A stretch of 64,000 bases of DNA, taken from a phage. This document shows, piece by piece, positions 3,885 through 54,216 of this stretch. The notes beneath the pieces are model-generated. The model worked only from the letters and a program-made list of their open reading frames with translations, ran no database searches and had not been told where the DNA came from. Every line of letters begins with the position of its first letter. Within the stretch, counting starts at the first letter, position 1. The DNA lies in assembly GCA_038450185.1 (NCBI GenBank), contig GCA_038450185.1_4765.1; one strand, written 5' to 3'. The position numbers were made by a program, and so were the translations under genes.

Positions 3885-3913
3885 ATTATAGGGGATCACC
3901 GATCCCCTGTCAA
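3885..3913 (-). promoter_or_regulatory. sigma70-type early promoter, TTGACA-17-TATAAT, palindromic spacer
   Basis: -35 TTGACA and -10 TATAAT read on the minus strand; spacer GGGGATCACCGATCCCC. Confidence 0.6.
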
Positions 3914-50640: not shown

Positions 50641-51642
50641 TTAGTAATGGCTAAAACCTTCGGTTACATCTTCAACCACATAGTAACGATGACAGCGCAT
50701 TTTGGCATTCGCATAATCTTTCGGGATACTTACAACGTGACGCGGATCAACTTTGCATTTAATGATTCGGCCTCGCCCACCGCCATAGTGCGGAATATAG
50801 TGTTTCGCTGCAACGTGGAGGCCATTAGAGCAAGTGCGATCATCATCTGGGTCCACGTCTTTACGCTTCATTTTAACCGTGCGCCCTGGGCTATTATCAA
50901 ACGTATGCGTAAAGAAATCTTTATAATCAACATCAACACGTTTCCATGCATAGAAACAACCATCTTCCCCGATCTCAATGTCGTTGTGCTCTAAGAAGTC
51001 AAACAGACGATCTACGGCCTTACGGCTAGGGTTTTTCTTGCACTTCTCAAAGAAGTTCAGATAGTGCGTATATGGCTTATTCTCTTTAATCGACTCCACC
51101 ACTCGACGAGTCAGATTATTATCAAGAACAATATTATGATAATACACAATACCATTTTCGATACGGAAAGCACCGTGATAATATACTTCAACCGCTTTCT
51201 TAATGTCAATCAGCGTAATAGCTTTGATGAAATCATTATGTTTAATCGCTTCCAGTGCTTCATTAAAGTTAACATGTGATGGGTCAGCAGTATAAACAAT
51301 GTCACCACATGTAATAGTAATAAATTTAGATGAGGCTATTGCTACGATTTTTGAGGAAGTAGTCACGGGCTTTTTTGCGCGTTCACCGCCTTTTCCTTTA
51401 CTGGTTTTACGGCGTGCTTTACGGTTTTCCAGTGCCTTGCGACCTTCCGCTACTGCGTCTTTCTGAATCAGTAATACACGAGAGGCAGTGCGACGAGATA
51501 CACCGAATGCTGCCGCAAGTGCTTCGCGGGTAGTAAACTTACCTTCGCCCCACTGTTTAGCCAGTTTGATTTGTTTTGCGGAGTCCAGACATTGAACGTT
51601 ACGGTCAGAGACGGTGATTTTTGCTTTAGTCATATTATTCAT
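50641..51642 (-). CDS. rIIB: rIIB protein
   Basis: 333 aa; SQKAVSRLFDFL, YFYAWK, HTFDNSPG, VDPDDD, DYANAKMR, YVVEDVTE match T4 rIIB. Confidence 0.85.
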   Translation of the reverse strand: MNNMTKAKITVSDRNVQCLDSAKQIKLAKQWGEGKFTTREALAAAFGVSRRTASRVLLIQKDAVAEGRKALENRKARRKTSKGKGGERAKKPVTTSSKIVAIASSKFITITCGDIVYTADPSHVNFNEALEAIKHNDFIKAITLIDIKKAVEVYYHGAFRIENGIVYYHNIVLDNNLTRRVVESIKENKPYTHYLNFFEKCKKNPSRKAVDRLFDFLEHNDIEIGEDGCFYAWKRVDVDYKDFFTHTFDNSPGRTVKMKRKDVDPDDDRTCSNGLHVAAKHYIPHYGGGRGRIIKCKVDPRHVVSIPKDYANAKMRCHRYYVVEDVTEGFSHY

Positions 51643-51695
51643 TCCTCTATTAGTTGGGCGACTCTCGCCGCCCGATTCACATCATTATACCAGAA

Positions 51696-51827
51696 TTATT
51701 TTGCTTCTACAACCTTGCGGATTGTGCGGTCTGATACATTATAGATTCGTGCCAGTTCGCCTTTAGTCAAGCCGCGAGCGTATTGTTTACGGATGGTTTC
51801 TTTCTGGATAGCGGTCAGTTTAGTCAT
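51696..51827 (-). CDS. small helix-turn-helix protein (about 43 aa, below track cutoff)
   Basis: ORF MTKLTAIQKETIRKQYARGLTKGELARIYNVSDRTIRKVVEAK with SD AAGAGGTGA; sits between rIIA and rIIB. Confidence 0.45.
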   Translation of the reverse strand: MTKLTAIQKETIRKQYARGLTKGELARIYNVSDRTIRKVVEAK

Positions 51828-51838
51828 AATATCACCTC

Positions 51839-53944
51839 TTAAAATTTAACATTCTTAACCAGTTTCATAAAGTCTTGTGCGCGTTTGTCGTTATGCAGAA
51901 TACGATACCAGTTATCTACAATATCATACAGTAACGGGCTATTCTCTTTAAACTTCGCACAAACTGCTTTAATTCGTTCGTTTGCTGCCGTGAATTTTTC
52001 ATCACAAATCTTTTTAGTTTCTTCGTCCATAATCCAACGAGTACGAAGGAGTAACTTGGAAACCTCTTTATTATAATGACGACCGTACAGTCTGTCAATA
52101 AATTCTGGAATACAGCGTTCTAGTTCATCGTCATGAAACAACATAGTGATCACACCCAGATATTCGCCATACCCCAGATGATTGGTCTTAACCTTCTTAG
52201 CCAGACCAGCCAGCTTACCGCGAACAAATTCTAGCGCACATTCCAATTGTTCGTCAACGAGATATTTTTGTGTCTCGTTTCTAGTAATAATATACTTTGT
52301 TACCCCGAAGTAGTCAAGCGCCGTGTGTAATGTATTTTCACTATAGATCGATTTACGACTACGGCTTTCGAATGCATCACCTACGCGGAACATGTGCAAG
52401 CCTGATAACTCGCGAATCTCTGCCGCTTTCATGTGATGGCTGGTTTTATGCCAACTGTCACCAATCTTTTCCATGATATACACGTTAGGCAGCTTGGGAG
52501 TCGCTTCACGTTGTGTGCTCGGTCTTTCCGGTTTAACTGCTTTAGCACGCAGATCATCGGCCTCTGATACCTTAATCACGGTCATTTCAGAATCATCATA
52601 ATACTGTTTGATGTACTCGAAAGTCTCCATATGTTTTTCGTTGTTCTGACGGAACACCAGTACCTTTTTATTGATGCCGTATTCTTGGACCATGCCGTTA
52701 AGAGTCAGTGCACGCAGTTTCGGTTTATCAGTATCATCAATAAGACACGTAATATCTTCTTTATGCATCCATACAAAATGCGTAATGTTGTATTGACTGC
52801 TAACGAAAGCAGGGCGCAATTTGCTGATTGTGTGACGAGTACGATACAGAGTATACACCTGACCTTCTACGTCATTTGGCGAATCTTTACCCGCATTCAC
52901 AAACTTATTATAGGTTGCTACCGGATCATCCCACTGCCCGATCTTACCCATCTTGCTAATAATATTGCGTTGAGTCGATGAATACTCGCTCATAAATTGC
53001 GCAAGTTTACGCTCTGTTTTAATGTTGGCGATCTTTTCTTTAACCTTTTCCAACATCATTTCATTGATTTCTGCAATGCGTTTTTCGATGTTCGCTTTAG
53101 TCTCAATTGACAAGTGAACTTCTTCACGCGATGGCATCAGGTCCAGATCACCCAACTCAAAACTAATGTAAATGGTCTGGTGCTGGCGGTTTACAGCTTC
53201 TAACCATGTTCCGCGAACATATTCATACGGGATCGGATACTGGATCTTACCCATGATTGCATATACTACATAGGAATCGTTATCACGCCCATTACAAACA
53301 TAATAATTATCAAAGCTAGGGAAATAATTAATTTCGATTGCATTGATATTCGGTTTGTGTTCCCCAAAATGACGCAGTACAAATTGCGCTTCTCGATGCC
53401 ATGTCTGAATGTCTTTTTCTTTCACCGGAATAGTGATTTTCAGACCGTTGTCTTCATAGGTCGGTTCGTCGAAAATCTGCACCATTTTCGGAATAGAGTT
53501 TTGCACAAATGCAGTAAAGCCATAAGCGCGACCATTGTAGTAGTTTACGATTGTAAAGGTGTCAGTATAGCTATAAGCAGACTTCGCACCTAAACCAAAA
53601 GATCCGATATAATCATTAGTCTGGTCTTTGGTTGATTCAAAGTAAACAGTAAACAGTTGTTCTAATTCTTTCTTAGACGGAATACCCGTACCATAATCAC
53701 GCACAGAGAAATAAGGTTCAATTGCGGTAGGCAAATGAATATCAAACGGACGATCTAAGGTTCCGGCTTCTTTGTGGGTGTCGGTAGCATTACATGAATA
53801 CTCACGGACACAAGCACGTTCACAATATTGATAAGTGTTCTTAGAAAGCACCATAAAAGCCTTGCTACTTGCTTTCAGAGAAAAATCAACCGCACCGCTC
53901 AAGTCACTGCCAAATACTTCTTCATTATCAATATGCATTTTCAT
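51839..53944 (-). CDS. rIIA: rIIA protein
   Basis: 701 aa; YIGSFGLGAKSAYSYTDTFTIVNYYNG matches T4 rIIA. Confidence 0.85.
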   Translation of the reverse strand: MKMHIDNEEVFGSDLSGAVDFSLKASSKAFMVLSKNTYQYCERACVREYSCNATDTHKEAGTLDRPFDIHLPTAIEPYFSVRDYGTGIPSKKELEQLFTVYFESTKDQTNDYIGSFGLGAKSAYSYTDTFTIVNYYNGRAYGFTAFVQNSIPKMVQIFDEPTYEDNGLKITIPVKEKDIQTWHREAQFVLRHFGEHKPNINAIEINYFPSFDNYYVCNGRDNDSYVVYAIMGKIQYPIPYEYVRGTWLEAVNRQHQTIYISFELGDLDLMPSREEVHLSIETKANIEKRIAEINEMMLEKVKEKIANIKTERKLAQFMSEYSSTQRNIISKMGKIGQWDDPVATYNKFVNAGKDSPNDVEGQVYTLYRTRHTISKLRPAFVSSQYNITHFVWMHKEDITCLIDDTDKPKLRALTLNGMVQEYGINKKVLVFRQNNEKHMETFEYIKQYYDDSEMTVIKVSEADDLRAKAVKPERPSTQREATPKLPNVYIMEKIGDSWHKTSHHMKAAEIRELSGLHMFRVGDAFESRSRKSIYSENTLHTALDYFGVTKYIITRNETQKYLVDEQLECALEFVRGKLAGLAKKVKTNHLGYGEYLGVITMLFHDDELERCIPEFIDRLYGRHYNKEVSKLLLRTRWIMDEETKKICDEKFTAANERIKAVCAKFKENSPLLYDIVDNWYRILHNDKRAQDFMKLVKNVKF

Positions 53945-53958
53945 AATATAATCCTCAC

Positions 53959-54216
53959 TTAATTAAAATCTTCTTTGTCCATCTCTGCGTAGATTACATC
54001 CCACGCCCATAAATCAATAAACGCATTATATGTCACGGTGCAATCGTTGTCAATCACTTCTTTCGCATATTTCTTGATGTTTTCGTAGGAAACTTGCGGA
54101 TCAATTTTGTGTTTACGAAGGTGTGCATATTCATACCTCAAACATTTCATAAACAGGTCCATCGATTTCTTTTCTCGATGGTACTTGGCGAACATAAAAT
54201 CAAAACTTCTATTCAT
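53959..54216 (-). CDS. hypothetical small protein (85 aa)
   Basis: ATG-initiated ORF. Confidence 0.4.
   Translation of the reverse strand: MNRSFDFMFAKYHREKKSMDLFMKCLRYEYAHLRKHKIDPQVSYENIKKYAKEVIDNDCTVTYNAFIDLWAWDVIYAEMDKEDFN

Follow-up and report, generated by a model that had tools for sequence, protein, structure and literature searches.

A 43-codon gene between rIIA and rIIB of Krischvirus phages is probably a detached paralogue of the RIIB N-terminal helix-turn-helix

Between rIIA and rIIB of a T4-type coliphage lies a 43-codon reading frame (hereafter the mini-gene) that we consider likely to be a genuine early phage gene, encoding a basic, minimal helix-turn-helix (HTH) protein of 43 aa that would be a detached paralogue of the HTH module found at the head of RIIB. 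[quoted passage not shown] The clade studied here amounts to a natural domain-separation experiment: besides its usual place at the head of RIIB, the HTH has a gene of its own for a free-standing protein of 5 kDa, and the comparisons presented below suggest that this HTH may have an autonomous, selected activity. What is new is the purifying selection acting on the gene across the wider clade, its RIIB-type HTH identity as a separate gene and the presence of a cassette of the PeSL type (promoter-early stem-loop) on its 3′ side. The label of about 60 genomes could thereby change from 'hypothetical protein' to 'RIIB-type HTH domain protein'. The mini-gene would be a neat example of how a domain is duplicated and split off at a well-known locus, and not a new kind of system; apart from the re-annotation, there is nothing unusual about it as a small HTH gene of a phage.

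Organization of the rII locus

The window, that is, the whole stretch of 64,000 nt that was analysed (NCBI GenBank assembly GCA_038450185.1, contig GCA_038450185.1_4765.1), covers an early-gene region of Krischvirus, the RB49-like T4-type coliphages, and its rII segment is 97-98% identical at the nucleotide level to kaaroe, RB49, Sf20, JEP8 and about 55 more records. The features discussed in this work are listed in Table 1.

Table 1. Positions of the rII-region features, numbered from the first letter of the 64,000-nt window.
Feature	Position	Strand	Remarks
rIIA	51839..53944	minus	701 aa; PHROG 612, E 4e-189; stop abuts the mini-gene SD
Mini-gene (43 codons and stop)	51696..51827	minus	between rIIA and rIIB; RB49p274, PHROG 15481
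Shine-Dalgarno (SD) sequence of the mini-gene	51838..51831	minus	directly after the rIIA TAA (51841..51839), 3 nt before the mini-gene ATG
rIIB	50641..51633	minus	330 aa as annotated in relatives; PHROG 609, E 2e-106
RIIB N-terminal extension	51582-51633	minus	conserved, ~11 residues before the HTH
RIIB HTH	51466..51582	minus	residues 18-56; AF2 model; same helix arrangement as the mini-protein
RIIB C-terminal domain	50641-51348	minus	residues ~96-330
Putative sigma70-type rIIB promoter	51684..51712	minus	-35 TTGTAG, 17-nt spacer, extended -10 TGgTATAAT
Stem-loop, 7 bp, GC-rich	51656..51673	minus	GGGCGGC-GAGA-GUCGCCC, without U-tract
Sigma70 promoter, perfect consensus	52070..52098	minus	TTGACA-17-TATAAT; embedded towards the 3′ end of rIIA, ~240 nt before the mini-gene
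Consensus promoter	54053..54025	minus	would drive the rIIA transcription unit

Translation of the mini-gene gives MTKLTAIQKETIRKQYARGLTKGELARIYNVSDRTIRKVVEAK, followed by a stop codon, a sequence identical to that of the RB49 copy. Its ATG is found 11 nt past the rIIA stop and this short interval holds GAGGTGAT, an 8-nt match to the anti-SD, while 62 nt separate the end of the mini-gene from rIIB. The original prediction, made from the letters of the window, had described a 43-codon ORF with a strong SD in a gap of roughly 196 bp between the two rII genes, and each of these elements is confirmed, the gap measuring 196 nt from the rIIA stop to the ATG at 51642 and 205 nt to the better-spaced ATG at 51633. 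Its statement that the two rII genes almost touch in T4 also holds for T-even phages, the gap being 11 nt in T2 and 0 nt in JD18 and Metamorpho. The prediction had further presented the ORF as one that falls below the size cutoff of an ORF list; the ORF is real, but it had already been annotated in RB49 (RB49p274, NP_891845), kaaroe (kaaroe_171), GEC-3S (BN201_0276) and others, in nearly all records as a 'hypothetical protein'. The mini-protein matches the PHROG 15481 profile over its full length (E 3e-34, positions 1-43 of 43) and thus belongs to the same family as RB49p274, for which the database entries give neither a function nor a link to RIIB. The literature that we searched, including the RB49 and T4-like genome papers, holds no discussion of the mini-gene, and no Rfam match was found in 51400-52200.

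For rIIB itself there are two candidate starts. The ATG at 51642, which gives the longest ORF (MNNMTK...), is separated from the SD AGAGGA by no more than 1 nt, whereas the ATG at 51633 (MTKAKIT..., 330 aa) has a 9-nt SD spacing and is the annotated start in RB49, kaaroe and GEC-3S.

Conservation and selection

By tblastn, the mini-gene is present at 95% or higher amino acid identity in 59 phage records, the same number as match the rII DNA, and no cultured phage outside those 59 records exceeded 60% amino acid identity to the mini-protein. A word-indexed search of 5.8 billion proteins returned five clusters of 43-aa homologues (98-69% identity); it missed the 45-aa version of one uncultured lineage (L012), which was recovered through its rIIB neighbours. 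The order rIIA, 43-45-aa ORF, rIIB is found in five diverged uncultured lineages (L006, L007/8, L009/10, L011 and L012/13), a count that comprises every contig long enough to show the context. The GAGGT-type SD at the rIIA stop is kept in L007, L009, L011 and L012, and is weaker in L006.

Between lineages, pS ranged from 0.47 to 0.78 and pN from 0.015 to 0.17, yielding dN/dS values of 0.02-0.13 with synonymous sites that are near saturation. Across lineages the mini-protein shares 71-86% amino acid identity with that of the window, whereas in the same genome pairs the identity is 38-43% for RIIA and 54-63% for RIIB, which makes the mini-gene the most constrained gene of the rII locus. Because the ORF is kept at 43-45 aa under purifying selection in diverged relatives, it is more than a chance reading frame, and as judged from these alignments it is a real gene under strong purifying selection. 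The original prediction had named a lack of conservation in close relatives, together with a missing translation signal, as what would speak against it; as regards conservation, we found the ORF and its SD both kept, in close as well as in distant relatives. Beyond these lineages, the mini-gene is absent from L014, a member of the next-closest rIIB clade in which rIIA is followed by 83 nt and then by rIIB, and from JD18 and Metamorpho (Jiaodavirus) and T2 (Tequatrovirus), where rIIB abuts rIIA.

A metagenomic protein of 32 aa (P0159, MTKLTAIQKETIRFHFSRGLTKCDVSRMYNFS) agrees with the mini-protein in its first 13 residues but not beyond them; its likely source is a read of the mini-gene that is erroneous or frameshifted, or else a rare disrupted allele.

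Predicted fold of the mini-protein

The mini-protein has a mass of 4979 Da (5.0 kDa), a pI of 10.4 and a net charge of +6.5. Over residues 2-43 it matches the Pfam family CENP-B_N (PF04218, a psq-type HTH) with 26.0 bits, above the cut-off of 21.2 (E 7e-6), a match that places it in a generic HTH class and says nothing on its function; the scores for Sigma70_r4, HTH_28, HTH_11 and HTH_7 (resolvase) were just under their Pfam cut-offs. The AlphaFold2 model, built from a six-sequence alignment, has a pLDDT of 90.7 and three helices, at residues 6-18, 22-28 and 33-41. When this model was compared with the PDB using Foldseek, only HTH domains were retrieved, with E-values that are weak, as expected at 43 residues. 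They included Hin (1ijw_C, TMq 0.83, TMt 0.76), the IstA transposase (TMq 0.81, rmsd 1.0 Å) and CENP-B (TMq 0.78), and further matches were to gamma-delta resolvase and to LuxR/NarL-type domains. The homeodomain-like HTHs of Hin, gamma-delta resolvase, IstA and CENP-B superpose on the predicted mini-protein over 39-43 residues with TMq values of 0.78-0.83 and rmsd values of 1.0-1.6 Å. Unlike those proteins, the mini-protein is without a catalytic domain and has no evident N-terminal minor-groove arm, and the sequence identity is 18-28%. In comparison with the Hin-type HTHs, its DNA binding is putative, with indirect support from the fold, the pI and the invariant recognition helix.

Among seven distinct family members, the helix 2-turn-helix 3 portion (TKGELAR-YNVSDRTIR-VVE) is essentially invariant and helix 1 is variable. 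At 43 aa, the mini-protein is about as small as an independently folding domain can be, a point against our preferred explanation. The Hin domain provides an example of a peptide of this fold, about 50 residues in length, that is able to bind DNA alone. The minimal HTH that had been proposed from the letters is upheld by the CENP-B_N score and by a confidently modelled three-helix bundle, and the models support a tiny three-helix HTH, that is, a predicted domain of DNA-binding type.

Relationship to the RIIB N-terminal HTH

Outside Krischvirus, the top tblastn matches of the mini-protein are to the first ~40 residues of RIIB in Jiaodavirus (52%), Slopekvirus, Karamvirus and Winklervirus phages, although individually these matches are non-significant (E 0.04 or higher). 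The mini-protein also matches PHROG 609 (RIIB) at the N-terminal positions of RIIB, and 116 of the 122 RIIB proteins compared carry a single HTH that starts at residues 1-5, with which the mini-protein is colinear from its own Met. The two share the three-helix module known from the RIIB N-terminal HTH (T4/T2 RIIB ~5-45; PF26926 Phage_T4_rIIB / PHROG 609), the motif L-x3-Q-x3-I ... G-x-[ST]K-x-[EL]LA-x2-[YF]-x-VS-x-[RD]TI-x-[RK]V and a position directly downstream of rIIA. The mini-gene start, in particular, falls at the position of the rIIB start in T2.

Pairwise similarity between the mini-protein and RIIB HTHs is only 42-52% over ~40 residues, and some unrelated HTHs are equally similar, one example being the HTH at the C-terminus of the HNH endonuclease P0144 (~55%). 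BLASTP of the mini-protein against the RIIB of its own phage gave no match (E 25); the kinship appears only via profiles and the RIIBs of other phages. We derived an HMM from the RIIB modules of 106 out-group proteins, with the sequences of the Krischvirus clade left out. With this profile the mini-proteins scored 47.6-54.3 bits and the resident RIIB HTHs of the Krischvirus clade 33-40 bits, while 147 look-alikes, which are the best non-RIIB matches to the mini-protein profile among 1.84 billion representative proteins, scored at most 44.3 bits (median 24.3). Proteins with several HTH repeats and the HTHs of endonucleases made up the bulk of what that search of the representatives with the mini-protein profile returned. 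The higher score on the RIIB profile than either the resident HTHs or the look-alikes, together with the rIIB-like start site, argues for a detached paralogue of the RIIB N-terminal HTH module, a reading that the sequences support, sited where rIIB normally begins. The original prediction had spoken of an insertion; the mini-gene would rather be a detached RIIB HTH copy at the usual start of rIIB, and not foreign.

Covalent continuity with the RIIB linker and C-terminal domain is lacking in the mini-protein, since codon 43 is followed by TAA, the 62-nt spacer intervenes and rIIB is in another frame; the mini-gene is therefore a paralogue of an RIIB domain and not part of RIIB. It differs from the RIIB HTH in being a separate, unfused polypeptide of 43 aa that coexists with a second, diverged HTH attached to RIIB. 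The Krischvirus-like clade thus has two RIIB-type HTHs, one free and one attached, and their recognition helices differ, reading SDRTIRKVV (VSDRTIRKVV) in the mini-protein and SRRTASRVL (VSRRTASRVL) in the resident RIIB, each conserved within the clade. This pattern suggests that the free and the attached copies may have taken separate roles. In pairwise alignments the resident HTH is the better match for T2 (67 vs 47) and the mini-protein for JD18 (80 vs 63), and the scores thus conflict over which of the two HTHs would be the original and over whether a two-HTH rIIB was split.

The resident RIIB

The RIIB of the window is complete, aligning with other RIIBs from residue ~11. Its AF2 model (pLDDT 87.9) shows, past the HTH, a long helix, a disordered basic linker (residues 81-92) and a C-terminal alpha/beta domain, the latter modelled with high confidence (pLDDT mostly >90). 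No meaningful fold match for the RIIB model was found in the PDB (best TM 0.2 or less), nor did we find a solved RIIB structure or a solved sequence homologue, and on the strength of the model the RIIB body looks like an uncharacterised fold. One paper suggests that RIIB may be a transcription factor (PMC7824862).

Across the clade, an rII locus carries between 1 and 4 HTH modules. In a Krischvirus-related metagenomic phage (L006:4685-6064, ENA ERZ27260015 k141_60519), a 459-aa RIIB carries three tandem N-terminal HTHs (residues 1-48, 56-103 and 142-188) in addition to a stand-alone 43-aa HTH gene. The RIIBs of the Krischvirus clade (for example P0007 and P0008) also share the short N-terminal extension listed in Table 1 (M..K/L-IT-x-SDRN). 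In this extension, KITVSDRN resembles a segment found after the HTH in T2 RIIB (RPKVTISGD), a likeness that could be the trace of a tandem duplication junction, although the match is too short.

The T4 genetics offers a parallel. The B1 segment at the start of T4 rIIB tolerates frameshifts and the r1589 deletion. From the work of Crick et al. in 1961 and from r1589, the N-terminal segment of T4 RIIB is reportedly dispensable for growth on K(lambda). By analogy, these observations are consistent with a separable function of the HTH.

The spacer between the mini-gene and rIIB

The 62-nt spacer carries, besides the SD of rIIB, a putative promoter and a GC-rich hairpin. The -35 element of the promoter (51712..51707) lies inside the last codons of the mini-gene and its -10 (51689..51684) is perfect, with a TG upstream, while the -35 matches the consensus at only 3/6 positions, and for this reason the promoter was missed by our promoter scan. 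The GEC-3S record carries a promoter annotation here, and L006 has the same TGGTATAAT as the window. In L007 and L009 the rIIB promoters (TTGACA-17-TACAAT/TATAAT) are wholly downstream of the mini-gene stop. The minimum free energy of the window spacer is -17.9 kcal/mol (z -3.1) and that of the six lineages ranges from -14 to -18 kcal/mol (z -1.6 to -4.6). A promoter and a GC-rich hairpin are found in the spacer of all six lineages, with differing sequences and layouts.

This arrangement recalls the PeSLs of RB49 and phi1, in which the stem-loops are attenuators or terminators (PMC2839356) and which, together with ORFans, form cassettes that are a unit of shuffling (Arbiol et al. 2010, PMC2839356). 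The spacer matches the PeSL layout in its succession of an upstream stop codon, a putative sigma70-type promoter, a GC-rich stem-loop, an SD and a start. Those of L007 and L009 are textbook PeSLs, with TTGACA-17-TA(C/T)AAT and a stem around the -10, whereas in the window the weak -35 is inside coding sequence, with an extended -10 that would compensate, and the stem-loop is downstream of the -10. The mini-gene also differs from PeSL-associated ORFans in that it is a paralogue of an RIIB domain, stably inherited and not shuffled. Read from the sequence, the locus is made of the mini-gene followed by a PeSL-type cassette, with a predicted promoter and stem-loop, that would drive rIIB.

Origin of the mini-gene and competing explanations

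A plausible course of events would begin with a Krischvirus-like ancestor in which the HTH-coding 5′ end of rIIB was duplicated. One HTH copy would have become a separate cistron at the end of the rIIA transcription unit, its product being translated from the site normally used by rIIB, and a PeSL-type promoter and stem-loop cassette would have come to separate it from rIIB, leaving the latter with its own promoter, SD and HTH. The mini-protein, in turn, has in our estimate an even chance of binding nucleic acid via its invariant recognition helix (VSDRTIRKVV) and of then acting in trans, whether by assisting the rII system or by serving as a small regulator early in infection. If it does act in trans, the HTH of RIIB can work uncoupled from the RIIB body. 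That it would constitute a third, trans-acting rII component ('RIIC') is unlikely, but if this were true the HTH would have a conserved target of its own, be it a DNA site, a host sensor or a tether of the RIIA-RIIB membrane complex to phage DNA, and would offer an easy way to find out what the rII proteins do biochemically.

It is also conceivable, though not very likely, that a real mini-protein works through protein contacts, docking on RIIA or RIIB so as to replace or compete with the RIIB HTH, or serving as a decoy for host sensors that recognise RIIB. Its gene is co-located with rIIA, to which it is probably translationally coupled, in the usual slot of rIIB, and the dispensability reported for the T4 RIIB N-terminus on K(lambda) would mean that the core rII activity does not depend on the HTH. 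Furthermore, at least one defence system senses RIIB, which also acts against RexAB (bioRxiv 10.1101/2023.05.28.542683). However, the conservation is strongest on the helix 2-turn-helix 3 surface and the protein is highly basic, features that are typical of nucleic-acid binding. The PeSL-type cassette on the 3′ side of the mini-gene, given the known shuffling of PeSL and ORFan cassettes in RB49/phi1 (PMC2839356), could instead point to modular shuffling having brought in a foreign ORFan or the domesticated DNA-binding remnant of a homing endonuclease, and the same class of HTH does occur at the C-termini of HNH endonucleases and in multi-repeat HTH proteins. We regard such an origin as quite improbable. 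There is no PeSL on the 5′ side, where the mini-gene starts as close to the rIIA stop as rIIB does in T2; no HNH or GIY-YIG nuclease family is found among its Pfam and PHROG matches and its flanks are rIIA coding sequence and the spacer; the mini-proteins outscore all 147 of the best non-RIIB look-alikes on a profile made of RIIB HTHs only; and the two small stand-alone look-alikes that were checked (P0197 and P0253) are in unrelated contexts.

That the mini-gene is a non-functional leftover, produced by a partial duplication of the rIIB 5′ end or by gene replacement and kept only through its overlap with the rIIB promoter, could be argued from its resemblance to the first ~43 rIIB codons and from the overlap of its 3′ end with the -35 element in the window. 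The selection data largely refute this and make it very improbable: dN/dS is low while synonymous sites are nearly saturated, the length and the SD are preserved in five diverged lineages with a conservation above that of both flanking rII genes, and in L007 and L009 the promoter does not overlap the mini-gene at all. Translational bypass has its known example in T4-type phages (gene 60), and in the window the last two codons of the mini-gene (GCA AAA, then TAA) recur as codons 4-5 of rIIB with the stem-loop between the two GCA AAA sites, so a joining of the mini-gene to RIIB by read-through, frameshift or a gene-60-like bypass was considered, as was a role as a mere regulatory uORF; we give these readings almost no credence. 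The two ATGs are 194 nt apart (2 mod 3), the match of take-off and landing codons exists in the window only and has no equivalent in L006 or L009, spacer lengths differ, the stem-loop is 23 nt from the mini-gene stop and not at it, and rIIB has a promoter, an SD and an ATG of its own, while the conservation of the peptide sequence argues against a uORF alone. A gene-60-type bypass or an HTH-RIIB fusion was consequently rejected, given the reading frames and the relatives without matched codons.

Promoters of the rIIA unit and elsewhere in the window

The promoter at 52070..52098 is a possible second promoter for the mini-gene. It lies in the rIIA codons for FIDRLYGRHYN; L009 and L006 have near-consensus promoters at the homologous rIIA codons, and in L012 and L011 one is shifted downstream by ~45 nt. 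It is reminiscent of the rIIB promoters that T4 has inside rIIA. Considering the promoter positions, we infer that the mini-gene would be the last cistron of the rIIA unit, driven from both 54053..54025 and 52098..52070, with rIIB driven separately.

Across the 64-kb window, all of the near-consensus sigma70 promoters (11/12 or better) are on the minus strand (36/36), for example at 3913, 6045, 6290, 10033, 11171, 21931, 46029, 54667 and 55036. Many of the 36 are canonical PeSLs, in which AAAAAGTTGTTGACA lies upstream and the -35 and -10 flank a GGGGATC...GATCCCC stem.
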